Positions 1,958 to 59,670 of a stretch of 64,000 nt of DNA are shown piece by piece. A program made the position numbers and the translations under genes. The first letter of the stretch is position 1. Every line of letters starts with the position of its first letter. The DNA is from an uncultured virus (IMG/VR IMGVR_UViG_3300028048_002245). Taxonomy: Duplodnaviria > Heunggongvirae > Uroviricota > Caudoviricetes. The notes under the pieces are model-generated. The model ran no database searches. It was not told the origin of the DNA and saw nothing but the letters and a program-made list of their open reading frames with translations. Where the stretch lies: the IMG/VR virus record IMGVR_UViG_3300028048_002245; one strand, written 5' to 3'.

Positions 1958-2392
1958 TCAGAGAGCACCTTTAAGCAAATAGCTCCCTAGCTTTGCGGTT
2001 AAACCTGTGTAAATAGCCTCTTGCGTTTTCTTTGAAGATACACAAAAAAGTTCCCAGTGACTTATAGTCTCTTCTGAGCAACGGTGAGCATCTACCCAAG
2101 CATCTACTTTTTCTGTAAACTGCTTAAATGAATTGTTCTTAAGAATAGAATATACTTTGCCTAACGCCTTTTCGTTGTTTGGTGTAGTTGTATCAGTTGT
2201 TACCCGGTTCAGCAAAAAATTGAGTAACGACTTTTCAGCGCTGCTCCAATAATCATCTTCTGGTGCTGTAGTATTACATACCATTGAAGAAATATCTTCT
2301 CTTGCCTTTATGTCACATAGTTTTTCACATAGCTTGTCTGTCTGCCTCTTCTCTTTCCGTGTTTCGAGTTTTTGTCCTTTCGTTTCTGTCAT
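1958..2392 (-). CDS. Hypothetical protein resembling the all-alpha domain of VirD4/TraG coupling proteins
   Basis: DDYWSSAEKSLL and KTQEAIYTGLTAKL resemble the DxFWxxAE and KTxxSIxxxxxxrL segments of VirD4; no Walker motifs; RBS present. Confidence 0.4.
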   Translation of the reverse strand: MTETKGQKLETRKEKRQTDKLCEKLCDIKAREDISSMVCNTTAPEDDYWSSAEKSLLNFLLNRVTTDTTTPNNEKALGKVYSILKNNSFKQFTEKVDAWVDAHRCSEETISHWELFCVSSKKTQEAIYTGLTAKLGSYLLKGAL

Positions 2393-3192: not shown

Positions 3193-4476
3193 TCAGTTGT
3201 TTATTGCAATCCTATCAATCATATATCCGCTTTGCGGTTCGATCAGCTTTAGATTTCTGTAACTGATGTCACCACACTTTGTAGCTTTATTACCATTCAT
3301 GTCTCTTACACTGAATATTCCTGTTTTTCTTCTTCCAAAGATGAAATAATGTCTGTTTCCTTTATATTCCACTTTGTCGAAAAGCCTGAAACCTTTTACC
3401 TCGTATTCAGCCTGGTTCCGTTTTCTCACACCGCCTTTGGACACCTTCATCTTGTATATCTGCCTGTTGTGACACCTTACTTTCTTTATGAAGTAATACT
3501 CGTCTGTAGGTTCTGCCTCAGGATGTCCGCTTATGCATCTTGCATCGATACGGTGATCCTTTGGTAGATCATATTGCTTTCTAGCCTCAGCAGTCCTGTA
3601 ACCGAATGTCATATGCATTGACATTCCCAGTTCTTTGAGTCTGTCCCACACTGCCCATCTCATAATACCCATAAAAGTGGCATCTCTGAGCGCTGGAACT
3701 TTTGTATCAGGATCCATTATTCTTGCTTTCTTATCTGTAAGTGTTCCTGCGTGATAAGCCTTATGACAGTCTGTACACACTGTTATGAGATTTGACGGTA
3801 TATCAGTACCGCCATTGTGACGCTGTATCTTATGATGTACTTGTAGCAGTGCGTGTTCAGCTCCGCATACCGCACATCTGTAACCGTCACGGAACTTTAC
3901 ATAGGCTTTGATGTTATCGTATCCTTCTGTCTCACTGTGCTGATAATCAGTACCTTCAGGTCTTTTCATGCCTTCAATATCTGCTTTCAATTTCTGTGTA
4001 TCAAAAGGTGCCATCTCAACATGAATCTCAGTTACAGGCAGTATCTGCATTATGTGTTTTGCTGCCATTATGTGTGCTTCGCATTTGGCTTTTACTGAAG
4101 GAGCGAGCCACCCTTTCTTCTTGCAGTGAGTCCTGTTCAGGAATCGTGGCTTTCGATACCTTGTCTTACGGCTGTGCCTTGAACGTCTTTCCTCCCTTCT
4201 TGTGACAAGGAGCTTATTTATATCCTGTCTCAGTTCTACCTGTGCTGAAAAGAGTTCCTTTCTTTCAGTCGTAGCAGAAAGGCCGATATGCTTACTCCCT
4301 GCATCTATGCCAAGTGATACTGGCTGTTTATGCCTTTCACTGTTATATGTGAGCTGTATCGTAAAGGGAGTCCTCCTTACAACAACAGCTTTTCCATCTT
4401 TTAGGAGATGACGTACCTTCCCATATCTTTTAGTTGGCATCAAGGGTTTGCCATCTCTGTCTAGTACATAGACCAT
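3193..4476 (-). CDS. iscB: IscB RNA-guided nuclease
   Basis: PLMP N-terminus, RuvC-I GIDAGS, Arg-rich bridge helix, HNH (CAVC..VHH..N..CTDCH), RuvC-III HRIDA. Confidence 0.95.
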   Translation of the reverse strand: MVYVLDRDGKPLMPTKRYGKVRHLLKDGKAVVVRRTPFTIQLTYNSERHKQPVSLGIDAGSKHIGLSATTERKELFSAQVELRQDINKLLVTRREERRSRHSRKTRYRKPRFLNRTHCKKKGWLAPSVKAKCEAHIMAAKHIMQILPVTEIHVEMAPFDTQKLKADIEGMKRPEGTDYQHSETEGYDNIKAYVKFRDGYRCAVCGAEHALLQVHHKIQRHNGGTDIPSNLITVCTDCHKAYHAGTLTDKKARIMDPDTKVPALRDATFMGIMRWAVWDRLKELGMSMHMTFGYRTAEARKQYDLPKDHRIDARCISGHPEAEPTDEYYFIKKVRCHNRQIYKMKVSKGGVRKRNQAEYEVKGFRLFDKVEYKGNRHYFIFGRRKTGIFSVRDMNGNKATKCGDISYRNLKLIEPQSGYMIDRIAINN

Positions 4477-4489
4477 AGTTTATAAGTTA

Positions 4490-4805
4490 CCTTTCTACTG
4501 TCTTAAACAGTAAATCTTATTGTAGATGCCTGCCCTAAATTTCAGGCAGGCTGTCTGCATCAGTTATCGTACCTTCGCCAATGTTAGAAAAGCTTGTCGT
4601 ACTCGATCATACCAGGTTGACTGTCCTTACCTCACGGGACTGTTTACAGAGCCTGCACAAAGCTGCAGATTAGGTACTATGTCCGCAGGTGTGATAACTT
4701 ATCTAACGTAGCCTTTATTTCAAGGCTTAGGCTATTCAACATGGGATTGTGTGGAAGTTTTACCTTTCATACAATCCCCTATGCTTTAGCATAGGGGTCA
4801 TTGAA
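4490..4805 (-). ncRNA. IscB omegaRNA scaffold
   Basis: About 300 nt structured region upstream of iscB with typical segments (TAGCCTAAG..CTACGTT..TAACATTGGCGAAGG) shared with the omegaRNA at 47383..47650. Confidence 0.8.
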
Positions 4806-8228: not shown

Positions 8229-8620
8229 AAATATTTAGCGGGGAAACCCACAGGCTTGCCTGTGAGAGGAACCGCCTTTAGCCTACCTTTCTTTGTTCTA
8301 TAAGATAACTACTACGCATTTTTAACAACTTTAGGTTCTTATATCCTATAGACACCTTAAACCTTGAAAGGTTTTAATTACTCACCCCGGAGGGTGGTTA
8401 GTGTACCATCGCCAATGTTAATGAGAGGTTTTTGCCTGCAACACTGTTCCTAACCTTAAGAACTGTTTAATCACTTGCCTTAGAGCTGCGGACTTGGTAC
8501 TACATCCGCAGGTAACTATATATTCTCTCTTAACGTAGTGCTTAAAGCACTTAGGCTACTCACTCAGGGTTACAGTATTTCTATTGCAACCCCACGGGCT
8601 TGCCCGTGGGTATTAGTGAG
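8229..8620 (-). mobile_element. Non-autonomous omegaRNA-only derivative of the IscB element at 47383..48953
   Basis: Both ends, the omegaRNA and the last ~70 nt of iscB match the 47-49 kb element; the rest of iscB is deleted. Confidence 0.9.
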
Positions 8621-8665: not shown

Positions 8666-10198
8666 TTACTGCAAGAACATAACATAAAGGATATATACGG
8701 CTATACATCCGATTATAAGGAGGACTACCTTCTTCATGACTGATTTGGTAAATTCCTTCTTGTATTCATCCTGTTTTGCTTCTACGTCGTCATAGTAGCC
8801 GTCCCAGTTTGCGTTATATGTGCCGTCCGGGAAGTACAGATTCTGCTTTTTATGTTCCTTCTTATCCTCATACATTCTCGAATCAGCAAGATCAAGAAGT
8901 TCCTGCATTGAGTCAGCCTCTTCGCCATAGGCGGCTCCTGCCGCGGCCGTAAACATCTCGTTCTCTTCAAGTCCTTCTTTACGTTTTACGTCTTCTCCTT
9001 TGCTCTTTAAGAGTTCCTTGAACTTCTTTATCTTCGGATCTACGAGGCCTTTGTTTTCTCCGTCGAGAAGTACCATGAACTCGTCTCCGCCTGTCCTGAA
9101 ACAGTTCTCTTCTCCGAATGCTCCCGCAAGTGAAGAAGAGACAGATGTGAGAAGCATATCGCCGTATTTATGACCATATGTATCATTCGTATGTTTCAGC
9201 CCGTTCGCATCAACAGCTACGACACAGAGTTCCTTTTTGGAAAGATCTTTCAGTGCTTTGTCATATGCTTTTCTGTTCTGGAGTCCTGTAAGTTCGTCGT
9301 GATATGCGACATATTCAAGATTCTGTTTTTCTTCCTGCAGCTCGCGCTTCTGGTCGTTTATATCCTGCTTCTGCTGCTTGATATAGTTTTCTCTCTGAAC
9401 AGCTGCCATGACCTCGGGATGACTGTTTACTGAATCAGGAACCGCAACCTTTGGCTGTTGCCTTGATCTTGATGACTTTTTTGGCTTTTCTGTAGATCTT
9501 TTCTTTGAGCCGAACAGAGAGTGCTTTTCCTTTTTCTGCTTTACAGGTTTATCTTCCTGTTCGTCAGGTTCATCCTCTTCATCGTCTGTATCTGTTACTT
9601 CACCATCTTCATCAGCTGAAGCATTTTCATCATCAGTGTCGTAATCCGCATCTGTATCTTCATCATATCCTTCAGCCTCTTCTGCCATATCATCTTCATC
9701 ATCATCATAAAAGCTGTCACTATCAGATACAGGTTTCTTTACAGCTTTTTTCTTTACAGGAGTCCTGTTTTTCTTCACAGGTACTACATCCTCTGCATCT
9801 TCTGTTTCACTGTCGTCTACATCTTCCTCATATTCATCTATTCTCGGAAGAGGCTTCGACTTTTTTGGAGCTGCCTGCTGCTTGACAGATTCAGATTCCT
9901 GTACCTGTCTTTTTGGTTTCGCCTGCTGTACGGATGATTCTTTTGACTTTACTGAAGAATCTGTTTTTTTACTAACTGCGGGTTTACGCTGTTCCTCAAC
10001 TTCAATCGTTCTTCTTTTCGGTTTCTGCTGTTGTGAAGAAGTATCACTTTTCTGGCTGTTTCCTGCTGACTGATTATCATTTCCAGACGGAGACTGCTTC
10101 TTTTTCTTCTTCTCAGGCTTCGGCTGTGTTGCTCCGCAGAACAGGCAGAACTGAGCATTGTCATCTATCAGTTCTCCACATGATACGCATTTTTTCAT
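8666..10198 (-). CDS. Diguanylate cyclase: zinc ribbon, long Lys/acidic disordered linker, GGDEF domain, C-terminal TM anchor
   Basis: CVSC..CLFC; HDELTGLQNR, DANGLKHTNDTYGH..GD, RTGGDEF; hydrophobic C-terminus. Confidence 0.88.
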   Translation of the reverse strand: MKKCVSCGELIDDNAQFCLFCGATQPKPEKKKKKQSPSGNDNQSAGNSQKSDTSSQQQKPKRRTIEVEEQRKPAVSKKTDSSVKSKESSVQQAKPKRQVQESESVKQQAAPKKSKPLPRIDEYEEDVDDSETEDAEDVVPVKKNRTPVKKKAVKKPVSDSDSFYDDDEDDMAEEAEGYDEDTDADYDTDDENASADEDGEVTDTDDEEDEPDEQEDKPVKQKKEKHSLFGSKKRSTEKPKKSSRSRQQPKVAVPDSVNSHPEVMAAVQRENYIKQQKQDINDQKRELQEEKQNLEYVAYHDELTGLQNRKAYDKALKDLSKKELCVVAVDANGLKHTNDTYGHKYGDMLLTSVSSSLAGAFGEENCFRTGGDEFMVLLDGENKGLVDPKIKKFKELLKSKGEDVKRKEGLEENEMFTAAAGAAYGEEADSMQELLDLADSRMYEDKKEHKKQNLYFPDGTYNANWDGYYDDVEAKQDEYKKEFTKSVMKKVVLLIIGCIAVYILYVMFLQ

Positions 10199-11827: not shown

Positions 11828-12580
11828 TCAGCTTTCTGCTATATCTGACTGACCGATTTCAGGCAGTTCCAGTATTCTGAATCTTATCGCCATTACTTCC
11901 CTGCCTTTCTTTACAGGTTCATAAGCAAGCTTATACTCAGTTTTTTCATTTATCTCAGTAACTGCCCTCTTTAAAACTTTTACATTGAAAAATTTAAACT
12001 GTAAATATATCTCATCTTCATTACATCCCATAATATCCTTTAGATAATTTACATCTTCTTCCCATTCCTTTCTGAAAGCATTTTTTATCATATATGTAAA
12101 CATGACATAGCTGTATCTGCTAGTCAGGCATATGATATTCCTCAATCTGTATCTTATATATCCGATATTTTCAATGTTAAAAAAATATTTGTCCGCAACA
12201 TTGGTGCTTGCCATTTTAATTTCCCAGTAGCCGTCTTCATCAGGGATTGCTTCTGCATACTCGAAGAGATTTACCGCCACAAAGCCATCTTTGGCTCTCT
12301 TGTCAGGAATATTGACGGTACGGCTCATAAGGTTCATTACACGCTTTTCGAGTTCGGCTTTATTTATCTTTTTTACCCCGAGTGCCTGTTCTACATCACC
12401 TTTATGCATGAGGACAATCCTGTTTTCAGGATTTCGGGCATCAATCCTTGACAGATAAAGATCAAGTAGCTTTAGTTCTGCCAGACTCATCTGCGATTTC
12501 CAGAGTTCTGTCAGGGGATGACTTTTTTCAACTATCATATCCCCCTGGTTTTTTGAAATACCCTTTAACGTTCTTGCCAT
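11828..12580 (-). CDS. Rep_3 family plasmid replication initiator (replicon 1)
   Basis: Y..Y.L..I..L.SRYS, F..FN.KVLKRAV.EIN..T and K.GR.V..I.F motifs; adjacent iterons. Confidence 0.88.
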   Translation of the reverse strand: MARTLKGISKNQGDMIVEKSHPLTELWKSQMSLAELKLLDLYLSRIDARNPENRIVLMHKGDVEQALGVKKINKAELEKRVMNLMSRTVNIPDKRAKDGFVAVNLFEYAEAIPDEDGYWEIKMASTNVADKYFFNIENIGYIRYRLRNIICLTSRYSYVMFTYMIKNAFRKEWEEDVNYLKDIMGCNEDEIYLQFKFFNVKVLKRAVTEINEKTEYKLAYEPVKKGREVMAIRFRILELPEIGQSDIAES

Positions 12581-12779
12581 ATTATCTCCTTTATTGGCAT
12601 TATTTCTTGTTGCAATTATTATTATAAAATACCTTTTGTTGTTTTCTTTATTTATTTTGAAAATTTTTTTATTTTTTTATTTTCCTATATAAACCGTTCA
12701 AACAAGTCTATATCGTATATGATTTTTATTTGTTTTTATTTTTTTGTAATGCTGTTTTTTGTTGTCATTTTTTTAAGTA

Positions 12780-12902
12780 TGGAATTTTATGGTAACCTAT
12801 TGGAATTTCATGGTAACCTATTGGAATTTCATGGTAACCTATTGGAATTTCATGGTAACCTATTGGAATTTTATGGTAACCTATTGGAATTGTTAGGTAA
12901 CC
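12780..12902. repeat. Iterons of origin 1: five tandem 21-bp repeats plus one partial
   Basis: TGGAATTT(T/C)ATGGTAACCTAT at 12780, 12801, 12822, 12843 and 12864; partial at 12885; upstream of rep. Confidence 0.88.
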
Positions 12903-12950
12903 AAAACAATCATCAAAGCATTGCTACCACTGAATTTCTCCCGCTCCGTA

Positions 12951-13320: not shown

Positions 13321-13545
13321 TTGACATCTATGCCAGTTTATTATATTATTAACATATCATAGAGTCTTGAGATTTAAACAGTGGTTAGAGATTCCTATCT
13401 CTGACTGCTGTTTTTTAGTTTACCGTCCTTTATCAGGGCGGTATTTTTATCTCAGACGACAATTTTAGGTTCCCACAGGTGGTGGGACAGTTGTAAACCC
13501 ATACAGAGTATGGTAACTGCTTCCCCACCTGACAACGGGGACAAT
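13321..13545 (+). promoter_or_regulatory. Repeated leader L1: sigma70 promoter, two terminators and conserved structured motif
   Basis: TTGACA-17-TATTAT; hairpin plus T-run at 13379..13416 and 13422..13449; motif 13461..13543 shared with 41940..42020 and 52131..52191. Confidence 0.7.
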
Positions 13546-13648
13546 TGTTGTATGAGTTATCTGTAAGTTTCACGGAATGTGAATTATATGCTACAGATAA
13601 CTTTTTGTGTGGGTCGGTGTCCCTTTGATCACCGAGAAAGGAGTAATC

Positions 13649-17898: not shown

Positions 17899-17954
17899 TC
17901 TATTTCAGTCTTATCTATTTCAGATATTATATCAGATATCATATCATATATCAT

Positions 17955-18350
17955 TTACAATTGTTCAAGCAACTGGTTTATCAGTTCGTTGGCACTGATA
18001 TTATACTCTTTTGCTACTCTGTTCATATTTTCAGCTGCCTTTTCAGTAAGTCTTATGCTTTTTGCAAAGTTCCTTACTGAACGGTTTCCTTTTTTCAGGT
18101 GTATTGACATATTGCTGTCTTCAAGAGGATTAACGGATGGTGTTCCCTGTATATCTTCTTTTTTAGCCGAATCTTTTCTGACTGTATCTGTCGAAGTCAC
18201 AGGCTTAGTCTCACCCTTCTCCTCCTGCTCTATGTCATGAAGGGCACGATCTACTGCACTTTCTGATGACGTTGTTTCTTTCATGCTTTCCTGTGCTTTT
18301 TTTCTGTTGATCTCACGCATTTTATTGCGCGCTTCGCTGCTGATTGCCAT
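17955..18350 (-). CDS. Small centromere-binding partition protein (type Ib ParB/RHH-like)
   Basis: Coupled to parA; disordered N-terminus and C-terminal KSIRLT..AAE.M..VA...NIS.NELI ribbon-helix-helix pattern. Confidence 0.65.
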   Translation of the reverse strand: MAISSEARNKMREINRKKAQESMKETTSSESAVDRALHDIEQEEKGETKPVTSTDTVRKDSAKKEDIQGTPSVNPLEDSNMSIHLKKGNRSVRNFAKSIRLTEKAAENMNRVAKEYNISANELINQLLEQL

Positions 18351-19114
18351 TATGCTGTCCTCCTGATTACTTCTTCTGCTATCTTTCTGTAATCGATAGC
18401 TGGTTTTGAATATTTATCTGCTTCCTGTAATGATTTCTGGATTACTTTTGTCTCCGATGCCACAATTGACTTTCTTACAGTCATGATAAAAGCATCTGGT
18501 TCGATGACATCTCTCATGTCTTCAAGTTCTTTGTAACTGTCTGAATGCATTGTAGTCCGCTCATACTTTGTCAGTATAAATCCCATTATACGAGCCTTTG
18601 AAAATGCGTGTCTGCCTTCCCTGAATTTCCTGAGATCCGTATTTACCGCGAGTATTCCGTCAAGGCTTCCTGCATCGCATTCCGTAGGAATCAGTACGTA
18701 ATCAGATGCTATATAAGCCATGTTCAGGAGAATATTCCTTGCCGGCGAATTATCGATGATAACGTAATCATAATCGTAATTATCTCTGATTATCTCAAGA
18801 GCATCCTGAAGCAGAAAAATATCTGCTGCATCAGTGAATGATCTGTCTGCTGCTGAAAGTGCTGTTGAGGCTGGGATCACATCGTACAGGTCGAGTTTTC
18901 TTATCGCATCTGCTATCGGGCTGTCGCCATGAAGTACTTCATTGATTGTAGGTGGTTCGCTATCAATCCCTACGTACTTTGTCATATTACACTGCTGATC
19001 GAAGTCAATGAGCAGAACCTTTTTACCTTCTGTAGAGAGGGATGCTGCAAGTTCGATTGAAGTTGTTGTCTTGCCTACGCCACCCTTCTGATTTGCTATT
19101 GCTATAGTTGTCAT
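18350..19114 (-). CDS. parA: ParA/Soj partition ATPase
   Basis: NQKGGVGKTT deviant Walker A, LLIDFDQQ, YVIIDNSP; likely start MTTIAI (19114). Confidence 0.93.
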   Translation of the reverse strand: MTTIAIANQKGGVGKTTTSIELAASLSTEGKKVLLIDFDQQCNMTKYVGIDSEPPTINEVLHGDSPIADAIRKLDLYDVIPASTALSAADRSFTDAADIFLLQDALEIIRDNYDYDYVIIDNSPARNILLNMAYIASDYVLIPTECDAGSLDGILAVNTDLRKFREGRHAFSKARIMGFILTKYERTTMHSDSYKELEDMRDVIEPDAFIMTVRKSIVASETKVIQKSLQEADKYSKPAIDYRKIAEEVIRRTA

Positions 19115-19169
19115 ATTTTCCTTTCTTTTAACATTTGTTTTTATTTTACGTTCGTAATTATATGCCAAT

Positions 19170-19810
19170 ATTATATTTTTGTCAATATCTTATATGATAT
19201 TTTATATTATATGGTATATATAATTTGATATGTATTATGATATCATATAACATATCAATTTATATATTATTTTTATGTATTTTTTATTTCAGTAAATTAT
19301 ATATGATATTATATCTGATATCATTTATAATATTGATATGTATATATATTCTTATATTTATTTATCTATTCATCTGTATATTGAATTATACTTATAGATA
19401 AGCAATATAACGCATTCAATATCTATTTCAATATCAATATATATACTTATATGCATATATGAAACAATATGATATTATATATCATATCAGGAGATAATAA
19501 ATATTATTATTTGGTTTATGATATCAACGACGGTATGACTTACAATATCATATTGTGTATTATATTCTATATGGATTATAATATTGTCTGTAATATAGTA
19601 TACGGTATAATAGTCACTATCACAGATTGTATTACAGGACAGTAATACAATATCCGATATTATATACAATATTATATCTGATATTATTATTTATATAAAA
19701 TATGAAATAAAATATATACATAAATATGCTTTATGGTATCATATTTAATATGATATATAATATCAGTCTATGTATCATATATAAGTAGCTTTTTATATAT
19801 TATTCATGAT
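19170..19810. repeat. Extremely AT-rich region with many TGATAT/ATATCA motifs (candidate parS centromere)
   Basis: Numerous TGATAT/ATATCA hexamers upstream of parA; similar clusters at 17920..17955 and 38812..38890. Confidence 0.55.
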
Positions 19811-34008: not shown

Positions 34009-36126
34009 TTACTTTACGTCAACTCCGTGAGTAAAGTAATAACTGAGCTTATCTTTTAATGTTGTCTGTCTGCTGTATGTTTCCTCATGTCCGATAGCAT
34101 AGGAAACAGCAGACTGGTCACCGACCAGGATGCACTCTTTCTTTGCACGGGTGATACCCGTGTAGATAAGATTCCTATTTAGCATCCTCATCTGGGACGG
34201 CAGTATACACATAATGACACATGCATATTCCGAACCCTGTGATTTATGGATACTCATGGAATATCCCAGTTCAAGCATATTCAGGTCTTCTTTTTCATAG
34301 GTCTGAACATTGTCTCCAAACTGGATATCAAGAGTGCAATTCTGCTCATCCACCCCTACAACTGTTCCGACATCACCATTGGCTAAGCCGTTCCAGTTCC
34401 TTGTCTGTAGCACAAGATCTCCTTCACGGAATATCCTGTTTCCACATGCTACAGATTTGCCAACAGGGTTAACGTAATACTGTGCGTAGCCATTGAGGCT
34501 GTCTACGCAGCATTTTGTCATACCTCTATGGAGGGGAGAGAGCAGTATCACCTGTTCTTTTCCATACTGTGCCACCTTTTTGCGATAGATGGTCAGTATG
34601 TCTTTGCAGGCTTCTCTGTCTTCGTCTGCCTGGTAAGCCATGAAGGTCTTACCATCAAAGATGAGGCTGTCATCTCCGACACGGATCTTTTCAGCATTAG
34701 GAATGATATTGCTGTCACCCTTTTGTCTGAACACGTCCGTAAGGCGGACAACAGGAATAAGCCCGCTTTCAATCAAATCACGCAGAACAGCACCTGCACC
34801 TACACTTGGAAGCTGATCGATATCGCCTACAAATGTAAGCTGAGAGTCATCTGATACTGACTTCATCAGGTCTCTTGCGAGCCAGATGTCGAGCATTGAT
34901 GACTCATCTACAATAACGGTAGCTTCTGTTATCGTATCAGGCTGCGGTCTGAAACTTTCTGCATCATCGATGCACAGAGCACGATGGATTGTCGTGGAAG
35001 GCAGTCCTGTTGACTCTGCAAGTTTCTTCGCCGCACGTCCGGTCGGAGCCATCAGACGCGAATCTTTACGCTTTCCGTATTTTCTACGGATATCTGTAAT
35101 GACCTGCATGATAGTGGTCTTGCCTCGACCGGGGCCTCCTGTAATAACGCTAAATCCGTTGCTTAAAGCTGCTTCAACAGCCTGTTTCTGCTGTACGGCA
35201 AGCGTCATCCCATGACACTTTTCCCATTCGATGATTTTTTCAGGTATCCCTGTTATAACATCTCCTGGGTTCTGACACAGTTCATATGCTCTTTGAGCGA
35301 TAGCATATTCTGCACCAGATGCACTCTTTCGAAGGAACAGCTTTTCCTTCTTAGAGTAAGAAAGGCGTTTGTCGATAAACTTTCTGTCTATCACGCCTCT
35401 TATCTGCTCCCGTGTATATCCGTAACGGGAGACTTTTTTAATCAGTCCTTCCAGACTGATGCCTGTGTTCCCACAGGCTTCATTTCTCTTCATCTCGAAG
35501 AGAATCTTACCCCAGATCACTTGGGGTGATTGGGCATCATAGCCGTCCTTTGCAGCGAGTTCGTCTGCAAGATGGAATGTACCACCTGGCATATCAGCGA
35601 ACTCATAAGGATCATTTACAGCCCAATCAATGGCTTTGTTTCCAGCCAGACGGTAAATCTGGCATATCTGGGTAGTGGAAAAACCCAGAGGAAACAGTTT
35701 GCAGAGAAGTCCTCGGGCACTTCTCTGTAACAGGACTTCATCAGATATGGCAAGTGCCGTTTTCTGAGTCAGTCCCCTAATTCCGACGATCTTTTCGGGT
35801 AATCTTTCAACCGTTTTAAGAGTGGCTTCTCCGAATACCCCAAAAATCGAGTCAGCTGTAATGAAGTCGCATCCGCTCTGCTGTAACAGAGTGATTACAT
35901 TCCTATGATCCGACTTTATCAGCCGTTTCATGTAGGAAACGGAGAATATTTCTCCGTACTTCGATTTTTTGACGTCACCCTCGAAGGAAGTGACGAACTT
36001 GTCCTGAGGCAGGAACTGCCCCTCGCACTTTACGGACTTCTTTGCATCAATGTCCATATACAGTGCGATTACAAAGTTGTCTTTTTTATAGATAGCTTTG
36101 TAAAAGACTCCTGTAAATTCCGCCAT
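34009..36126 (-). CDS. recD2: RecD2-like SF1B DNA helicase
   Basis: GGPGRGKTT, APTGRAA, TIHR, VDESSM, GDIDQLPSVG, SIHKSQGSEY, YTGITRA; N-terminal HhH region. Confidence 0.92.
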   Translation of the reverse strand: MAEFTGVFYKAIYKKDNFVIALYMDIDAKKSVKCEGQFLPQDKFVTSFEGDVKKSKYGEIFSVSYMKRLIKSDHRNVITLLQQSGCDFITADSIFGVFGEATLKTVERLPEKIVGIRGLTQKTALAISDEVLLQRSARGLLCKLFPLGFSTTQICQIYRLAGNKAIDWAVNDPYEFADMPGGTFHLADELAAKDGYDAQSPQVIWGKILFEMKRNEACGNTGISLEGLIKKVSRYGYTREQIRGVIDRKFIDKRLSYSKKEKLFLRKSASGAEYAIAQRAYELCQNPGDVITGIPEKIIEWEKCHGMTLAVQQKQAVEAALSNGFSVITGGPGRGKTTIMQVITDIRRKYGKRKDSRLMAPTGRAAKKLAESTGLPSTTIHRALCIDDAESFRPQPDTITEATVIVDESSMLDIWLARDLMKSVSDDSQLTFVGDIDQLPSVGAGAVLRDLIESGLIPVVRLTDVFRQKGDSNIIPNAEKIRVGDDSLIFDGKTFMAYQADEDREACKDILTIYRKKVAQYGKEQVILLSPLHRGMTKCCVDSLNGYAQYYVNPVGKSVACGNRIFREGDLVLQTRNWNGLANGDVGTVVGVDEQNCTLDIQFGDNVQTYEKEDLNMLELGYSMSIHKSQGSEYACVIMCILPSQMRMLNRNLIYTGITRAKKECILVGDQSAVSYAIGHEETYSRQTTLKDKLSYYFTHGVDVK

Positions 36127-36129
36127 AAT

Positions 36130-36407
36130 CCCTCCTTTCTAGGATGAGTTGTAGATTTGCACATTATCTACACCTCCTGACGTACAGAAAAGACGGCTCT
36201 CTTGAGCCGTCCTTTCAACAATAGACCGTTCCATTAAGGCGGGAAAGCAGAACTGATAAACAGGTCCACTCCCGTCACTTACGGGAACCATATGATGATG
36301 TCAGGAGATTAAAAACAAAAAAGCAGCCAGAAAGAAAACCTTTCTAACTGCTAAAATCTTATGACAACTATATGTAATATAATACTACATACGACGTGCA
36401 ATGTCAA
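36130..36407 (-). promoter_or_regulatory. Repeated leader L2 upstream of recD2
   Basis: TTGACA-17-TATTAT; terminator GCAGTTAGA..TCTGGCTGC-T6; divergent GGTTCCC..GGGAG..TTCCCGCC motif; second terminator near 36188..36215. Confidence 0.65.
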
Positions 36408-36804
36408 AGACAGTTATAATAAAGCACGAACCTCTGTTCATGTATCATTAATATATAAAGATAATATATAAAGAATATCAGCATCATGTTTACTTGTTTT
36501 ATTTAGCGACTGAGAAATGCTATAAAATAAAGGGTTTTCAAAGGGTTTGACGGAAGAAGAGTCATCAGGTCGTGGAAACAGGACATCTGCCTGAAAGTAA
36601 ATGGGGTAGTGCTTAACGGAAAAACAGACAGTTATGATAAAGGTCATTGCGGAACTATATGACTTTTTAACGGAAAACGGGGCAGTAGAACAAAGCTGTC
36701 ATTTCTGCTTACTGTCCTTTTTTCCGTTATAACCATATCATAACGGGTTGTGATTCTTTAACTAAATATAGCAGTCTGTGTGAATATTTTATAAAAAATA
36801 TCAG

Positions 36805-36860
36805 TTGTCAACAGTTTATCCACATAAAAATCCGTTTTATCCACATATCTCTGTGGACAA
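36805..36860. promoter_or_regulatory. DnaA-box cluster
   Basis: TTATCCACA at 36816 and 36837, TGTGGACAA at 36852 and near-match TTGTCAACA at 36805, next to an AT-rich stretch. Confidence 0.8.
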
Positions 36861-37135
36861 CTGATGTATTTTCATCATTGCGGGTGTTATATACACTATC
36901 CAGAGTCAGTAATAAGCATCGTGGAAGATATGACAGATTTAACGGAAAAACGGACACTGTAACTGATATCGCGGTATCCACGACTGTCCATTCTTCCGTT
37001 TCTGTTGTCCTGTCATGGCACAAGAATTTAAACCTCTGTCCATGATATGATTTTCTTTGCAGATTATGATTCAGAAAAAAGGATATATATCTAAAAGCAC
37101 GTTTTACAGCGTATCTGCCTGCCATATGCCTGTTT

Positions 37136-37458: not shown

Positions 37459-38814
37459 ATGCCTGAGATTATGACCGAAGCACAGAAGAGAGCGGTAGAG
37501 GTTGAAGAAGGTCGCAATGCGATGGTCCGTAAGGATAATACTCTCATTACAGCCAAATATAAATCGCCTCTTCTTGAAAATCAGCTTACCAGCATCTGCA
37601 TATCAAGAGCAAAAGAACAGAATGGGGAATACATAGCAACTGTCACATCTTCAGAATTGAGGCATCTTTTTTCTCTTAATGATAGCAATTCCAAAATCTA
37701 TAAACGCCTGTATTCTGTTGCAAAAAACATGGCAGGCCGTACCATATCCGCAGAAGATGGGCACGGCAACTTCTCTGTAATTAGCGTAATACAGGAGGCT
37801 AGATACAAGGACGGCGTATTCTCAGTTCTCTTTTCAAAGAAGATGAAACCTCTCCTCTTTGACTTACAGGGAAAATATACATCATACGCTCTTGCAAATA
37901 TCCTTAATTTTAAAAGCGACTATTCTTTCAGAATATACGAGATAATCAGAAAAGAAGCTTTTCGCATTACAAAGACCGTACCGATCGTTACCGTAGGGTA
38001 CGGGTTGTCTGAATTTAAATGTATGATAGGCATGGTAAACATGGAATCAGACCGTATCAAAAAGGCATTACAGGAGAATCCTATTGACTGGGACAGGATA
38101 GTGGAGATGGCTCCGGAAAAATCTTATGAAAACTGGACTGATTTCAGAAGGTATGTCATAAACAAGGCTAGAGATGAGATACGCTCACAATGTGACGTAT
38201 GTTTTGATTATTCACCTGTCAAGGAAGGCCAGGGATCAAGAGTTGTCGGGATAAAGCTGTTTATCATGAAAAACGACGTGATAAACCATGATGTAAATAT
38301 CAAGGAAGAGGGTATCAAGAAGCTGAATGAAGAATATGCTGACTCACCTTATAAACCGTCTCCTGAACTGGTAGAGATGATAGGTCATAATGAACTTAAA
38401 AAGAGCGACCTTATGATGTTCCTTAAAGATGCGGGCGGGGACAATGAGTTGGTACTTGAAGCTATAAAAAAGGCAGACGGGCAGGAGAGGGTAAATAACT
38501 ACATAGGCTGGATAAGGTCATGTATACGGAGTGGAGGATATAAGGATACAGATATTCCAGTGGAATCAGGATCGTCGGAAGCTGCAAGACAGAGCGATGC
38601 TCTTAATGCAGAGATAGAGAAAGATGCAGACAAGTTTGCAGCAAGTTACTGGAAGAGGGTAAAAGATGGGGGACAGGAAAAATTTAAAGAGTTTTCGGAC
38701 TTTCTTGTGTTGAACAACTTTACCGTGGATATGTTTGAAGCCATGTATTCACCTGCTGAGTGTGGGGAGATATTCATTAAATGGGTCAAAGGAGAAAAGA
38801 TAACCCTGATGTGA
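37459..38814 (+). CDS. Rep_3 family plasmid replication initiator (replicon 2)
   Basis: K.N.LI.A.Y, YT.Y.L..I....S.YS.RIYE, Y....DF.R.VI.KA..EI and G.RV..I motifs; adjacent iterons. Confidence 0.88.
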   Translation: MPEIMTEAQKRAVEVEEGRNAMVRKDNTLITAKYKSPLLENQLTSICISRAKEQNGEYIATVTSSELRHLFSLNDSNSKIYKRLYSVAKNMAGRTISAEDGHGNFSVISVIQEARYKDGVFSVLFSKKMKPLLFDLQGKYTSYALANILNFKSDYSFRIYEIIRKEAFRITKTVPIVTVGYGLSEFKCMIGMVNMESDRIKKALQENPIDWDRIVEMAPEKSYENWTDFRRYVINKARDEIRSQCDVCFDYSPVKEGQGSRVVGIKLFIMKNDVINHDVNIKEEGIKKLNEEYADSPYKPSPELVEMIGHNELKKSDLMMFLKDAGGDNELVLEAIKKADGQERVNNYIGWIRSCIRSGGYKDTDIPVESGSSEAARQSDALNAEIEKDADKFAASYWKRVKDGGQEKFKEFSDFLVLNNFTVDMFEAMYSPAECGEIFIKWVKGEKITLM

Positions 38815-41854: not shown

Positions 41855-41939
41855 TTTTGTCTCTCCTTTCTCCCATCAATACGTGACGGGTCGTTTAAAT
41901 AAACAGAACCAGATATAATCTGGTTCAGATACATAAGAA

Positions 41940-42020
41940 GTCCCCGTTATCCGGTGGGGCGGTAATCCTTTTTAAGCCTGTATGGTCGATTACTCCCACC
42001 TGATGCGGGAACCTAAAATT
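41940..42020 (-). promoter_or_regulatory. Conserved structured leader motif upstream of the yqaJ-like gene
   Basis: AATTTTAGGTTCCC..AGGTGG..GTAATC/GATTAC..CCCCACC..AACGGGGAC, matching 13461..13543. Confidence 0.7.
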
Positions 42021-42031
42021 TTAAGGAAATG

Positions 42032-42391
42032 TCAGGCACGACTGGCATTGTATGCCCGAACCATATCCTTTATCTCTCTAGGGAGAGAATATGGCTCGCC
42101 GTCGAAGACGGCTCTGCGGCATACGCTCATCGCATATGCCAGTGCGTCCTGGTAGTTATGTCCCAATTTAACGGCAAACGCCGTATAGTTAAGGACATCT
42201 TTCTCCCAATCAGGATATTCATCCTGATAATATAATTCTCTGCCTGCTGTTATAGCAGCCACTATAGTATCAGTAGCTGCCACCTTTTCACTTTCAGACA
42301 GAGAGTTGAACCCAGCCATCTTCTCAAATCGCTTGATGGCTGCATACTCCGCTTTTACAGGGCGAAGATTCTCTACATATTTTCTACCCAT
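42032..42391 (-). CDS. Hypothetical protein
   Basis: RBS AGGAGG; downstream of leader L3. Confidence 0.7.
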   Translation of the reverse strand: MGRKYVENLRPVKAEYAAIKRFEKMAGFNSLSESEKVAATDTIVAAITAGRELYYQDEYPDWEKDVLNYTAFAVKLGHNYQDALAYAMSVCRRAVFDGEPYSLPREIKDMVRAYNASRA

Positions 42392-42399
42392 TGATTTAT

Positions 42400-42619
42400 C
42401 CTCCTATAGGTCAGAAAATATATGCCGCCCTGAGGATACAGAAACTCTCTGCAACCTGATTCCACAAGGGGCGACATAAGATGTTGTACCCCGTGGAAAC
42501 GGGTATTAAAAACAAAAAATGCAGGAGCTGAATCTTTTCAAAATAGAAAAAATCAGTTCCTGCATATTTCTTATTACTGTAATTAGTTTTATTATAAACT
42601 AACTACGTCAATAATGCAA
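42400..42619 (-). promoter_or_regulatory. Repeated leader L3
   Basis: TTGCAT-17-TATAAT, long hairpin plus T6 terminator, then a hairpin containing ACGGGGTACAAC. Confidence 0.55.
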
Positions 42620-45514: not shown

Positions 45515-45543
45515 TTTATGGAAAGAAAGACTGCTTCTTGTCT

Positions 45544-45641
45544 TTGACATATATGCCAATATACTTTATAATATAACATATATCTAGTCAAAAGGTATTT
45601 TTAAAGTCGTTAGAATCTGATGATTCTGGCGGCTTTTTTGT
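45544..45641 (+). promoter_or_regulatory. Repeated leader L4
   Basis: Perfect TTGACA-17-TATAAT followed by an AGTCGTTAGA..TCTGGCGGC-T6 terminator. Confidence 0.7.
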
Positions 45642-45676
45642 TACAAGTCCCGATTTGCTAAAGAAAAGAAAGGAGC

Positions 45677-46111
45677 ATGATTATGGGATGGACAGGTATC
45701 CCGAAGCACTTTGACAGTGCTTCAGAAAAAAAACAGTACCTTGATGGTCTCTTCAGAGACGGAATAAAGGTGCTACTTTCGAGGATGGTCAGCAATGAGT
45801 ATTATGCTGCCATTCAACAGGAAGACGGTACTGTGACTGCTTATGTCGTAAAGACGGCAAGCAGGAGTGCAGAATTCCTTTATAAAGGAGTATCTGAGGA
45901 CTGTGGTCCGATATGGACTAAATGCCCTCAGATGATTCTTAAAATCCTTTCTCCGACTGAGAACCAGTGGGCTCTCAAGTGGAGACAGGAGTGTGTCGAG
46001 TATAACGAGGCACAAAGAATCAAAAGGCGGAAATACGAGAAAACCGCCAGAGAAAAAAATAAAAATGAAAGGGCACAGCTTAAAGCTGCTATAGCAGCCG
46101 CTCTTGACTAA
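45677..46111 (+). CDS. Mobile-element hypothetical protein (DUF6927-like)
   Basis: MGW start; YK..SE.CGP...CP..IL..LSPT....A..WR..C motif. Confidence 0.6.
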   Translation: MIMGWTGIPKHFDSASEKKQYLDGLFRDGIKVLLSRMVSNEYYAAIQQEDGTVTAYVVKTASRSAEFLYKGVSEDCGPIWTKCPQMILKILSPTENQWALKWRQECVEYNEAQRIKRRKYEKTAREKNKNERAQLKAAIAAALD

Positions 46112-46283: not shown

Positions 46284-47390
46284 ATGGATAGATATAATGC
46301 TATTGACTTGTTCTGTGGAGCAGGAGGCTTATCCTATGGCTTTATGGAAGCGGGGTATGATATAATCGTCGGGGTTGATAATGATAAGGATGCCCTTAAT
46401 ACGTTTTCAAAGAATCATGAGGGAGCAATGGCTCTGAATGCCGACTTGTCGAAGCAGGCAACAATAGATGAAATAAGGCATATAGCGGGCGACAGAGAGA
46501 TAGATGTAGTCATTGCAGGTCCCCCATGTCAAGGATTCTCAGTCACAGGTCCGAGGCATTTTGATGATCCAAGGAATAGACTGTATCTTGCAGTTATTGA
46601 ATTAGTAAAACAGTATCGCCCGAAGGGGTTCATAATAGAAAATGTCCCTGGGATGGCTGCGATGTATGATGGACAGGTAAAAGATGAGATTCTAAGACGT
46701 TTCCGTGATATGGATTATAATATTGAATGCCGGATTCTGAAGGCATGTGACTATGGCGTTCCTCAGATGAGAAGAAGGCTTATTTTCATGGGAGTACGTG
46801 GTGATATAGGTAAACCAGAATTTCCTGTTCCTATGTATGGACCTGATGGAAGCAGACCTTATGTAACCTGCCGTGATGCAATATCAGATCTTCCAGAGAG
46901 GCTTGATAAAGATGGTCTTGGTACAGAGGAAGATTTATATAGTCAGCCTGCACAGACAGAATATCAGAAAGAAATGCGTGGCAGCTGTAATATCCTTTAT
47001 AATCATGTAGCTACAAAGCATAAGGAGTTTGTAAAAGAGGTCATAGCACAGGTTCCAGAGGGCGGTAATTATAAAGATCTGCCGGCAGGTGTGGGAGAAA
47101 GCAGAAATTTTCATATGGCGTGGACAAGGCTTGATGGCAATGCTCCTGCCCGGACTGTGGATACTGGTCATAGGAACATATTTCATTATAGCCTGAACAG
47201 AGTACCTACTGTCAGGGAGAACGCAAGACTTCAGTCGTTTCCTGATGATTTTGTATTCACAGGAAGTCGCACAAAGCAGAGCAGACAGGTAGGCAATGCT
47301 GTACCACCGCTGCTTGGCAAGGCTCTTGGGTTACAGCTGAAAAAGATTATTGGTGGCAGTGACAGTTGTGCAGCAGAGGACGCTCACTAA
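46284..47390 (+). CDS. dcm: C5-cytosine DNA methyltransferase M1 (last codons supplied by IS end)
   Basis: DLFCGAGG, GPPCQGFS, ENV, PQ.R.R, RE.ARLQSFPD, QVGNAVPP. Confidence 0.93.
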   Translation: MDRYNAIDLFCGAGGLSYGFMEAGYDIIVGVDNDKDALNTFSKNHEGAMALNADLSKQATIDEIRHIAGDREIDVVIAGPPCQGFSVTGPRHFDDPRNRLYLAVIELVKQYRPKGFIIENVPGMAAMYDGQVKDEILRRFRDMDYNIECRILKACDYGVPQMRRRLIFMGVRGDIGKPEFPVPMYGPDGSRPYVTCRDAISDLPERLDKDGLGTEEDLYSQPAQTEYQKEMRGSCNILYNHVATKHKEFVKEVIAQVPEGGNYKDLPAGVGESRNFHMAWTRLDGNAPARTVDTGHRNIFHYSLNRVPTVRENARLQSFPDDFVFTGSRTKQSRQVGNAVPPLLGKALGLQLKKIIGGSDSCAAEDAH

Positions 47391-47650
47391 TACCCACGGG
47401 CAAGCCCGTGGGGTTGCAATAGAAATACTGTAACCCTGAGTGAGTAGCCTAAGTGCTTTAAGCACTACGTTAAGAGAGAATATATAGGTACTTTGGAATG
47501 TAGTACCAAGTTCCAAACACTACGGTCTGTGATTAAACAGCTCTGAGGTATAGGAGCAGTGTTGCAGACACATAAACCTCTCATTAACATTGGCGATGGT
47601 ACACTAACCACCCTTCGGGGTGAGTAACTAAAACCTTTTAAGGTTTTAAG
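47383..47650 (+). ncRNA. IscB omegaRNA scaffold
   Basis: Structured region upstream of iscB, homologous to 8350..8620 and 4490..4805. Confidence 0.8.
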
Positions 47651-47665
47651 AAAGGAGTACGACTT

Positions 47666-48904
47666 ATGGTCTATGTATTATCAAAAACCGGACAGCCTTT
47701 AATGCCTACAGAAAACCATGCTAAAGTACGTATTCTTTTAAAGCAAGGTAAGGCAAAGGTAGTACACCGCTGTCCGTTTACAATACAACTGTTGTATAGT
47801 AGCACGAACTATACACAAAAGGTAACTTTAGGCATAGATAGTGGAAGTAAGCATATTGGTCTTTCAGCAACTACAAAGGATAAAGTATTATTTGAGTCTG
47901 ATGTAGAGCTTAGAAACGATATTGTAGACTTACTTTCTACTCGTAGAGAATTAAGACGTTCCCGTAGGAGTCGTAAAACCAGATACCGTAAAACACGATT
48001 TAACAATCGCAGGCGCAGTGACAGATGGTTAGCACCCTCTGTAAAACAAAAAGTAGACTCTCACATTACGATGATAGCAAAGATACACAAAATACTGCCT
48101 ATCTCAAATATCATAGTAGAAGTAGCCTCTTTTGATATCCAGAAGATTAAGGATCCTGCAATAAGTGGTACAGATTATCAAAAAGGTGAACAGTTAGACT
48201 TTTGGAATGTGCGTGAGTACGTCCTCTTTCGTGATGACCACACTTGTCAGTGCTGCCACGGAAAATCAGGAGATAAAATTTTAAACGTACATCACATAGA
48301 AAGCCGTAAGACAGGTGGTAATGCACCCAATAATCTCATTACACTATGTGAAACCTGTCATACTGGATATCATAAGGGAACCGTAAAACTACCTAAGACA
48401 ATACATAGAGGAATGTCTTTTAAGGATGCTACGTTTATGGGCATCATGCGTTGGGCTTTGTATGGGAAACTTAAGTCTATATATCCAGACGTAAAACTTA
48501 CTTACGGATATATTACTAAAAACGTTCGTATAAAAAACGGTTTGCCAAAGGATCATTATATAGATGCTCGTTGTATTAGTGGCAATCCTAACGCTGCTAG
48601 TAACGGAGATGTCTATTATTATAAAAAAGTCCGTTGCCACAATAGGCAGATACACAAGAATACCATCCTTAAAGGTGGTTATCGTAAATGTAATCAGGCT
48701 CCATATGAAGTTAAAGGTTTTAGACTTTTTGATAAGGTACAGTGGAAAGGATGTAAGTGTTTTATTTTTGGCAGACGCTCTACAGGACGTATGGATTTAA
48801 GGCTTTTAGACGGAACACATATTAACGCTTCTGTAGGATACAAGAACCTAAAGTTGTTAAAAATGCGTAGTAGTTATCTTATAGAACAAAGAAAGGTAGG
48901 TTAA
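47666..48904 (+). CDS. iscB: IscB RNA-guided nuclease
   Basis: PLMP, GIDSGS, bridge helix, HNH (VHHI..GG..P.NLITLC..CH), HYIDA. Confidence 0.95.
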   Translation: MVYVLSKTGQPLMPTENHAKVRILLKQGKAKVVHRCPFTIQLLYSSTNYTQKVTLGIDSGSKHIGLSATTKDKVLFESDVELRNDIVDLLSTRRELRRSRRSRKTRYRKTRFNNRRRSDRWLAPSVKQKVDSHITMIAKIHKILPISNIIVEVASFDIQKIKDPAISGTDYQKGEQLDFWNVREYVLFRDDHTCQCCHGKSGDKILNVHHIESRKTGGNAPNNLITLCETCHTGYHKGTVKLPKTIHRGMSFKDATFMGIMRWALYGKLKSIYPDVKLTYGYITKNVRIKNGLPKDHYIDARCISGNPNAASNGDVYYYKKVRCHNRQIHKNTILKGGYRKCNQAPYEVKGFRLFDKVQWKGCKCFIFGRRSTGRMDLRLLDGTHINASVGYKNLKLLKMRSSYLIEQRKVG

Positions 48905-52130: not shown

Positions 52131-52300
52131 TTGTCCCCGTAAGGTGGGGAAGTGTGATACTAATGTAAGACACCCTGCCACCCGCAGGACCGTTCAGAGA
52201 ACAAAAAAACAGCCAGACAAGATATGAAATCTTATCTGACTGTTATGTGTCTTTGAACTTTTATATTTTCTATTATATATCAAAGGTCCACATTATTCAA
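52131..52300 (-). promoter_or_regulatory. Repeated leader L5 with structured motif
   Basis: TTGAAT-17-TATAAT; ACAGTCAGA..TCTGGCTG-T7; CCTGC GGGTG GCAGG..CTTCCCCACCTTACGGGGACAA. Confidence 0.7.
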
Positions 52301-58719: not shown

Positions 58720-58735
58720 CTACAAGCTCCAGCAG

Positions 58736-59476
58736 GTTCCCGCTCGTAAGAGCGGGTGGATAGAAACAATGATGTCTTGAACAAGCTGGAACTGCAGCGT
58801 GTTCCCGTTCGTAAGAACGGGTGGATAGAAATGTTGGATAGAAACTACACAGGAACTAAGATGGATAGACCGAAATATTCCCGCTCATAAGAGCGGGTGG
58901 ATAGAAACCAGTTCGAGCGCGACCTTATCGTGGAGCGTACAGTTCCCGCTCGCAAGAGCGGGTGGATAGAAACCTTTCTCTTGTGATAACAATGATTTTC
59001 TTTGATTCCCGCTCGCAAGAGCGGGTGGATAGAAACATAAGTCCAAGAGTAACGACTTCCTTTTCATCATGCTCCCGCTCACAGGAGCGGGTGGATAGAA
59101 ACACGGGTGCAGCCGGAAAAGGAATCGCACTCCAGATTCCCGCTCGCAAGAGCGGGTGGATAGAAACAAGCAGGACCGGAAGGCCCGCAGGGTATTCAGG
59201 ATTCCCGCTCGCAAGAGCGGGTGGATAGAAACTACTGTACAGATCCATTATCTTCTGTGCCGCTATTCCCGCTCGCAAGAGCGGGTGGATAGAAACGGCG
59301 GATAGAAAAAGTGGATGGAAACATTGAAAGGTCTTTGGAAAAGCTAAAGAGTAATTCCCGTTCGTAAGAACGGGTGGATAGAAATGGTGGATAGAAATAG
59401 GAAGTGCCAAGGAGGTGCCAAAGAGGTGCCATTGGTGGCACCTCCTTATGCTTTTTAGTTCCCGCTCGCAAGAGCG
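58736..59476 (+). CRISPR. CRISPR array: 10 full 32-bp repeats plus one partial, type I-C-like repeat, no cas genes in window
   Basis: (G/A)TTCCCGCTCGCAAGAGCGGGTGGATAGAAAC at 58736, 58801, 58877, 58942, 59005, 59071, 59136, 59201, 59265 and 59354, partial at 59458; unique spacers mostly 31-34 bp. Confidence 0.93.
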
Positions 59477-59670
59477 ATAATGGTGGTTAGATAATGCCGA
59501 GAGGCGAGCAGGAGTCAACAGCCCACGACCCTAAAGGGTCGGGGCTTGCAGCTGGTCCCGGAAGTACTAACGTGACGCTGTAAGCGTCCTCCTTCCTTTA
59601 ATAGATGGGAATACACCCTTATACCGCCGCATCATCGGGTGGCTGACAGCACCCGCGAATAAGCCTCCTG

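Follow-up and report, generated by a model that had tools for sequence, protein, structure and literature searches.

A short structured element with competing folds, probably a leader RNA, repeated in four operons of a plasmid-like replicon from the bovine gut

Four copies of one element and the search for its relatives

The IMG/VR record IMGVR_UViG_3300028048_002245, listed as an uncultured virus, is represented here by a stretch of 64,000 nucleotides (the window), which is a plasmid-like replicon with a GC content of 42% and is present in public bovine gut metagenome and metatranscriptome runs. In this study, we described an element of 63-78 nt that occurs in the window in four copies, named A to D, in 5' leaders or intergenic messenger RNA (mRNA). 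In 4/4 copies, the open reading frame (ORF) downstream has the same orientation, and its start codon is about 45 to 105 nt away. Copy A (13467-13544, +) precedes the gene of a 440-aa protein without assigned function (ATG 13649, 105 nt downstream), which is followed by a PARP-like ORF. Copy B (42014-41938, -) lies between a 119-aa ORF (42391-42032) and an ORF for a RecE/YqaJ-like exonuclease (41854-40394). Copy C (52193-52131, -) precedes a 218-aa ORF without assigned function (ATG 52086), and copy D (36290-36226, -), in which the anchors have diverged to TCCCGCC and GGAAC, precedes an ORF for a RecD2-like helicase (ATG 36126).

A sequence-only reading of the window had proposed copies A, B and C, and the pattern CCCCACC-N(1-12)-ACGGGGAC bore them out: it was found three times in the window, at 13523-13542 (+), 41940-41959 (-) and 52133-52149 (-), and 0 times in 100 dinucleotide-preserving shuffles. 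As that reading had described, the three copies carry GGT(T/C)CC, GGTGG, a variable stem, CCCCACC and ACGGGGAC in this order, and AATTTTAGGTTCCC is common to A and B. A looser copy had been suggested at 36232-36290 (-), and it was recovered as copy D: in a leave-one-out search, the covariance model of A, B and C gave D as the top match outside its training set, at full length, with 16.2 bits and an E-value of about 0.006. The model of all four copies was run on both strands of the 64 kb with filters off, and the scores of A, B, C and D were 63.1, 54.9, 63.3 and 69.3 bits, respectively, all with E < 1e-10. All other matches had 18.5 bits or less. The next two were the reverse strands of B and A (15.7-18.5 bits, compared with 54.9-63.1 bits for the sense strands). 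The second looser copy that had been suggested, near 42480-42505 (-), matched neither covariance model at E <= 10 with filters off, and this site was not counted as a member of the motif family. One weak match at 63716-63773 lies inside a GGDEF ORF and was taken as chance.

The element had been called unannotated, and no known family was found on it. A search of the whole window with Rfam 15 at gathering scores gave three HEARO RNAs only, none of them on a motif copy, and a search of the four leaders at E <= 10 gave nothing at the motif coordinates, its sub-threshold matches falling mostly on the T1 hairpins described below and on flanking leader sequence. A scan of IMG/VR with CCCCACC-N-ACGGGGAC returned at least 117 loci, and among the matches listed all were chance or coding sequence by inspection. 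A scan of IMG/VR with GGTTCCC-N9-GGGA-N-CCCCACC returned 26 loci, none of them real, and 185,579 species genomes searched with GGTTCCC-N-CCCCACC-N-ACGGGGAC gave 34 loci, all with a GC content of 0.50-0.75 and none motif-like by inspection. The JGI metagenome scan with AGGTTCCC... returned 14 loci (15 rows), and the motif was present only in L157 and L158, which belong to a single contig; this contig represents the same plasmid, with 99.96-100% identity to the window. BLAST searches of the motif and leaders (blastn) against PLSDB and a phage collection gave nothing meaningful, tblastn of two downstream proteins against PLSDB gave no match, and protein-based locus searches in IMG/VR with three downstream proteins gave no relatives. 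The 440-aa protein encoded first after copy A has only two relatives among 5.8 billion clusters (P0006, 92% identical, and P0007, 83% identical).

When the matches listed in the pattern scans are taken together with the BLAST and protein searches, this plasmid alone carried the element. It is a real element with four copies, specific to one plasmid lineage. A miniature inverted-repeat transposable element (MITE) or another repeat derived from an insertion sequence (IS) was considered and rejected: all four copies are bound to leaders or intergenic mRNA and co-oriented with their gene, the repeat search lists no such family, and no copies in other replicons were found among the matches listed. 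A covariance model applied to 74 of the 191 pattern loci yielded nothing but weak scores (17.9-22.2 bits), on the high-GC contigs L156 and L136, and these were judged chance. In the unrelated metagenome contig L156, two inverted copies at 2126-2191 (+) and 3404-3470 (-), 1.2 kb apart, have a GGTTCCCG...CGGGAAC hairpin with CCCCACC..ACGGGGAC behind it; they surfaced solely through the search pattern and may mark the two termini of a small mobile element.

The leaders and the competing folds

The leaders A, C and D have the same order: a strong promoter-like site, a terminator-like hairpin (T1) about 30 nt on, the motif, a small hairpin and the ribosome site GAGAAAGGAG. In leaders A and D a second terminator-like hairpin (T2) lies between the motif and the small hairpin; T2 starts 11-14 nt past the motif in A, B and D. 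In leader A, the promoter (13321-13349, +; TTGACA-17-TATTAT, 11/12) is followed by T1 (13376-13413) and T1' (13421-13443), both terminator-like hairpins with T runs upstream of the motif. Its T2 (13556-13606, +), with the stem GTTATCTGTA/TACAGATAAC and then TTTTT, was recognised by eye and by folding, and its loop of more than 8 nt places it outside the terminator scan. In leader D, the promoter (36379-36407, -) again reads TTGACA-17-TATTAT (11/12), T1 (36322-36352, -) is a 14-pair hairpin with a T run, and T2 (36186-36211, -), an A tract followed by GACGGCTC-AAGA-GAGCCGTC and TTTTC, was seen by eye and is not in the scan list. Leader C has the promoter TTGAAT-17-TATAAT (52272-52300, -; 10/12) and a T1 of 16 pairs with a T run (52208-52244, -). 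No promoter-like site was found before copy B, and the T2 after it (41906-41926, -) is a 9-pair hairpin with a T-rich tail.

The promoter, T1, the motif flanks and the ribosome site GAGAAAGGAG are paralogous between the operons. A homologous cassette of promoter and T1 without the motif lies at 45540-45642 (+) before a 144-aa ORF (nhmmer, E 3.7e-5); the stretch 45540-45685 (+) consists of TTGACA-17-TATAAT and a T1-like hairpin and leads straight into that ORF. This indicates that T1 is part of the promoter cassette and that the motif is a separable module. The whole leaders fold into chains of independent stable hairpins.

The minimum free energy (MFE) fold of 4/4 copies was one long imperfect hairpin of 20-29 bp, with -25.4 to -36.1 kcal/mol and z-scores against shuffles of -2.7 to -4.2. 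It consists of the helix P1 (GGTTCC(C)/GGGGAC), an asymmetric internal loop, the helix P2 (GGTGG(G)/CCCACC) and the variable tip P3. From the same letters, three serial hairpins can be formed, namely hpA, P3 and hpB, which in copy A lie at 13471-13476/13482-13487, 13488-13519 and 13522-13526/13537-13541, respectively. The upstream hairpin hpA (T-CCCRY/RYGGG-A) has 6 bp and a 5-nt loop and reaches -9.1 to -9.3 kcal/mol alone, and the downstream hairpin hpB (TCCCC/GGGGA; TTCC/GGAA in copy D) is weak. When hpA was enforced, hpA and P3 formed in 4/4 copies, hpB was the preferred local fold in A and C only, and the energies were -18.4 to -26.2 kcal/mol, with the long hairpin favoured by 6.4-11 kcal/mol. 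The ribosome site lies about 30 to 95 nt beyond hpB. A closing stem that gives a cloverleaf was available in copy A only, and no conserved single-stranded core or junction was found in the motif.

The comparison of the copies was made on a model-guided alignment of all four. The arms of hpA read CCCAC/GTGGG, CCCGC/GTGGG, CCTGC/GCAGG and, in D, CCCGT/ACGGG; 24/24 cells were paired, and 3/6 pairs had changed on both sides, with C-G to U-A twice and with A-U, G-U and G-C at the third position. P3 differs wholly between the copies in sequence and length and keeps its pairing in 4/4 copies. Thus, the sequence-only reading was right that the 5' hairpin is preserved, as it also proved to be in copy D, that the inner stems differ yet pair, and that the folds exclude one another, the long hairpin and the hpA-type fold having been computed in all four copies. 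For hpA and hpB together, 95.5% of cells were paired and 4 pairs had changed on both sides, a result that was reached by only 6/500 shuffles (42-66% paired in slid controls) and that is to be read with the caveat that relatedness of the sequences can be enough to outdo shuffles, even when no structure exists. For P1 and the outer part of P2, 84.1% of cells were paired with no change on both sides, equal to the shuffles, in a fixed-column count that cannot track the register shifts of copies B and C; part of the deficit is due to these shifts, since C is short of one T and B has GGTGGG three letters later. We considered that covariation among the paralogues supports only the short hpA and not the long GGTGG/CCACC stem. 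Copy D has a single unpaired position, C/T, and one natural variant, 36233 A>C in one run, makes a C-G pair of it, which fits hpB and P1.

The conserved letters of the element are almost all at G-C helix positions, and P3 and the flanks have diverged past alignment, with the anchors and the pairing of hpA kept. We read the short hpA, which is made early, as being under selection even though the thermodynamically best fold is its competitor, and such retention would be the signature of a two-state element.

Contigs from four metatranscriptome libraries bridged copy B in 4/4 runs and copies C and D in 3/4 runs each, and they placed B between two ORFs within one transcript; DNA can occur in RNA libraries, and such contigs are no proof of transcription, of transcript ends or of levels. 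Around copy D, the contig of the fourth run (X9) ended at 36288, the first base of P1, and was followed by letters that we take to be Illumina adapter; the contigs of the remaining three runs ended at 36338, 36349 and 36358. Two further observations on these libraries were not used as evidence: the bin 36454-37007 was without coverage in all four RNA runs, and the contigs of three runs stopped at 42562-42566 and 45599-45605, about 14-25 nt past predicted starts. Differences in depth from gene to gene were set aside as well.

A probable two-state leader RNA and the other readings

Based on these comparisons, we regarded a two-state leader RNA as the most likely identity of the element, and we gave a rough probability of 0.4 to the reading that it is a cis-acting RNA modulating transcription elongation or RNA fate in four operons. 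During transcription, hpA would form first and P3 next. The emerging C-rich 3' strand (CCCCACC...ACGGGGAC) could then fold locally as the weak hpB, or alternatively pair zipper-like with the two arms of hpA, which would lengthen P3 into the hairpin P1+P2+P3. The balance between the two states would set the passage of RNA polymerase, or of intact mRNA, through the terminator-studded leaders to the gene, and this balance might itself be set by folding kinetics or by a postulated trans-acting factor of plasmid or host that binds hpA. The element would then give the four operons one shared RNA control point, by which they might be co-regulated.

Several results weigh against this reading. The terminator scans did not list hpB in any of the four leaders, the tails after hpB are poor in U (CAAUUGUUG, CUUCUUAUG, CAACUAAAA and CGGUCUAUU; copy C reads CAACUAAAAAAC), and in copies B and D hpB is not the preferred local fold. 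A T2 is missing from copy C. In 5/6 tests, the arms of T2 were no more complementary to the motif than shuffled arms, and the sole exception, the 3' arm of D (0.02), came from a second hairpin rather than from T2; therefore, an antiterminator/terminator exchange with T2 was not supported. No antiterminator or RNA-binding regulator was recognised in the domain scans, which compared 59 ORFs with Pfam and 33 with PHROGs. All comparative evidence comes from four paralogues of one replicon, which limits the weight of the evidence, and the unchanged pairs of P1 and outer P2, the caveat on shuffles and the possible presence of DNA in RNA libraries count on the same side.

If the two-state reading is true, zipper-like leader switches would not be confined to the first gene of conjugation operons, and such switches could be copied before several unrelated operons and form a small RNA-level regulon. 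The element is short and modular, with clean promoters and terminators around it, and would lend itself readily to study in vitro and as a model of co-transcriptional folding choices.

The classical four-segment attenuators of the trp and pyr leaders work by 1:2, 2:3 and 3:4 pairing. In the same way, the G-rich segment 2 of the motif pairs with segment 1 or 3; however, the 3:4 hairpin of the motif is not a terminator, 1:4 pairs too, and there is no leader peptide or known binding-protein site. Integron attC sites were rejected, core sites and integrase being absent, and k-turn, boxB/nut, ANTAR and T-box elements were also dropped.

Among known systems, the zipper-type attenuator comes closest to the motif and has the same topology. 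The mechanism has been described by Gonzalez-Alvarez et al. (NAR 2026; PMC13401043). According to the accessible text of that paper, the attenuator cATTpLS20 belongs to the conjugation operon of pLS20, where it lies in the leader ahead of conAn1, and occurs in many Gram-positive plasmids. Its central stem-loop is long and imperfect and stands between a weak stem-loop upstream and an intrinsic terminator downstream, the latter with a U tract and close to the ribosome site. When the upstream hairpin gives up its 3' strand to pairing with the 5' strand (and loop) of the terminator, the central stem is extended; a strengthened upstream hairpin drives termination. The upstream hairpin is made early, has -6.4 kcal/mol in pLS20 and is the pivot and the most conserved part of the family (PMC13401043). 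As far as this description goes, our motif has the same set of upstream, central and downstream stem-loops (hpB being variable in B and D), and its extended hairpin likewise dissolves both small ones, through GGTGG(G)/CCCACC and GGTTCC/GGGGAC, and is the MFE fold in 4/4 copies.

Against the same description, there are clear differences. The hpB of the motif is weak, has no U tract and was not recognised as a terminator, hpA is strong (-9.1 to -9.3 kcal/mol compared with -6.4 kcal/mol in pLS20), and the extended form is 6.4-11 kcal/mol more stable, whereas the two states of pLS20 are about equal. The zipper of the motif also takes up the outer arms of the two small hairpins, 5' in hpA and 3' in hpB, as P1. 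Moreover, the motif has 4 copies per replicon, stands at genes other than conjugation genes and has separate terminators, T1 and T2, on either side. Neither a conjugation operon nor conAn1 was seen at the motif in the domain scans, none of which was aimed at conAn1. Because hpB lacks a U tract, hpA is strong, the extended form is stabler and no conjugation operon was seen, we did not file the motif as a member of cATTpLS20.

Another system worth comparing is conAn2, the cis-acting RNA of conAn, a system for processive antitermination (Miguel-Arribas et al., NAR 2021; PMC8191782). The accessible text of that paper states that conAn2 depends on a short tract rich in GC and on a hairpin of about -10 kcal/mol, that it antiterminates a terminator closely downstream, and that conAn2 regions are 260-600 bp long and follow the conAn1 gene; put (HK022) and EAR are the RNA antiterminators named alongside it (PMC8191782). 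Like conAn2 as described there, the motif would be a GC-rich cis RNA on a Gram-positive-type plasmid, with T2 11-14 nt on in A, B and D. Unlike conAn2, it has only 63-78 nt and no recognised conAn1-like partner, and the leader of copy C is without a downstream terminator. The position of the motif before T2 in A, B and D fits a conAn2-like antitermination.

We also considered, with considerable doubt, a more specific form of the two-state reading, in which a self-contained zipper switch that has lost its own terminator, or never had one, would be the RNA operator shared by a plasmid regulon, either through an RNA-binding factor that reads hpA in four operons or as a put/conAn2-like cis antiterminator through T2. 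If true, this would be a compact class of antitermination or attenuation RNA from an uncultured rumen plasmid lineage.

Apart from switching, the main rival reading is that the element might be a hairpin of RNA stability or processing, whose long form blocks 5'-to-3' exonucleolytic decay or is an RNase III-type site; the element would then be an ordinary one. Similar repeated hairpins are found in the early mRNAs of phages, for example, T7 and SP82. The long hairpin of 20-29 bp is the MFE fold in 4/4 copies, B stands between two ORFs of one transcript, and the leaders are strings of independent stable hairpins, all of which would suit this explanation. The X9 contig that ends at 36288, at the base of the D hairpin with an adapter-like tail, agrees with molecules that have their 5' end at that base and would suit it slightly; however, it is one contig in 1/4 runs, and the other three ends lie elsewhere. 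Neither the three compensatory changes in hpA nor the constant sequence of P1/P2 beside the free P3 would be explained, and we considered a role in stability or processing to be unlikely.

It was also considered, and thought somewhat less probable still, that the copies have no present function and are remnants of a duplicated promoter-leader cassette, whose pairing persists because the copies are young or homogenised. The whole leader is paralogous between operons, and among the matches listed the element was in no other replicon, as would be expected of such remnants. However, the anchors and the pairing of hpA are kept next to a P3 and flanks that can no longer be aligned, changes on both sides of 4 pairs are not expected under neutral decay, and the existence of the promoter-T1 cassette without the motif marks the motif as a separable module.

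A riboswitch aptamer of an undescribed class appeared very improbable to us. The leader position, the alternative folds and the missing Rfam match would agree with it, and a second messenger would be the candidate ligand, given that two ORFs for GGDEF cyclases lie in the window (8666-10198 and 63267-63950). Against it, the conserved letters have nearly all been drawn into G-C helix with no conserved unpaired core or junction, no expression platform is coupled to T2, and the downstream genes are mixed, mostly of unassigned function and without a common metabolic theme.

We gave an equally small chance to a single-stranded DNA (ssDNA) element, that is, a primosome or single-strand initiation signal, an ssDNA promoter of the transferred strand or a hairpin recombination site. 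Folded attC sites have an outer stem, an internal loop, an inner bulged stem and a variable tip, an outline that the motif recalls; the same hairpins are possible in ssDNA, and the plasmid carries replication genes. However, ordinary double-strand promoters stand before A, C and D (none before B), and in a Frpo-type test the stems had no -35/-10 pair, save one 9/12 site of chance level, in A only and on its minus strand. The scanned ORFs of the window gave no integrase, relaxase or recognised primase; the 496-aa ORF that had been labelled a primase shows no primase domain in these scans. The element keeps a constant place with respect to ribosome site and start codon, RNA-library contigs contain it, and G-T wobbles are tolerated: the pairs include G-U wobbles that are workable on the sense strand only, and the reverse strand scores far lower. 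Thus, of the earlier proposal of an RNA or ssDNA switch in leaders, the strand-specific, structured motif in 5' leaders or intergenic mRNA stood, and the ssDNA option was left with nothing in its favour.

The least probable of all, a CRISPR-repeat mimic (a solitary repeat unit or an RNA anti-CRISPR in which hpA imitates the repeat of the plasmid through the shared GGTTCCCGC), can draw on the hairpin-repeat array at 58730-59480 and on 7-9 letters that B and D share with the repeat start, but its local alignment scores of 10-16 do not rise above the background given by 3,144 windows of the plasmid (median 11, 90th percentile 14, 99th percentile 17), and compared with the plasmid's own repeat the stem lengths differ and the 3' handle is absent.

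Other features of the plasmid

The site near 42480-42505 belongs to a leader, here called E, that has alternative hairpins of its own (42440-42505, -) and serves the 119-aa ORF. Within 42389-42584 (-), CCCGT/ACGGG at 42503-42490 (1:2) competes with CCACGGGG/CCCCTTGTGG (2:3), which competes in turn with the long, terminator-like hairpin ATGTCGCCCC...GGGCGGCAT and its T-rich tail (3:4), and this tail can pair with the ribosome site. On this folding, leader E looks like a classical attenuator of its own. Before the ORF of the RecD2-like helicase, a ribosome site and ATGTGCAAA... at 36126-36166 (-) open a short out-of-frame ORF, which in its first codons is like the beginning of the ORF that follows copy C (ATGTGCATT...). 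This resemblance suggests that the helicase gene was placed behind a truncated copy of the leader and start of the C gene.

The domain scans found two Rep3 initiators, a ParA protein and a type I restriction-modification system. Further genes encode C5 methylases with an NgoFVII-type endonuclease, IscB and TnpB, ClpB and a DarA_C protein. As a transfer-type gene, one T2SSE ATPase only was seen in these general scans of the window ORFs, away from the motif leaders. The first Rep3 gene (11828-12580, -) is adjoined by about 7 iterons of 21 bp at 12759-12923 (+), and the second lies at 37459-38814. The ParA gene (18350-19168, -) is flanked by dense AT-rich repeats with a 12-nt period within 17914-19775, which are probably centromere-like sites.

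The three HEARO (IscB omega-RNA) matches to Rfam lie at 8397-8620 (-), 4563-4805 (-) and 47383-47608 (+), with 117-124 bits. Two of them adjoin IscB-type ORFs (RRXRR plus HNH) at 3193-4476 and 47666-48904, and the one at 8397-8620 is an orphan copy without such an ORF alongside.

The CRISPR array (58730-59480, +) has about 10 copies of the hairpin repeat ATTCCCGCTCGCAAGAGCGGGTGGATAGAAAC with a period of about 65, which we take to be type I-C-like in look, and no cas genes were recognised in the window around it. In three of its units, the 3' end (GGATAGAAA...) is repeated further in tandem (at about 58828-58845, 59290-59321 and 59380-59400), and a truncated repeat lies at about 59458.

The contig L158, which is the same plasmid, joins 40338 directly to 1009 at the repeat CTCGGCTACTTGTAGCCGAGTAGTTCACA, an IS-associated repeat that comes after TnpB copies. 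This junction indicates that the replicon exists in at least two arrangements. In the RNA-library contigs of three runs, 46070 was joined to 36073 with 23 other letters between them.

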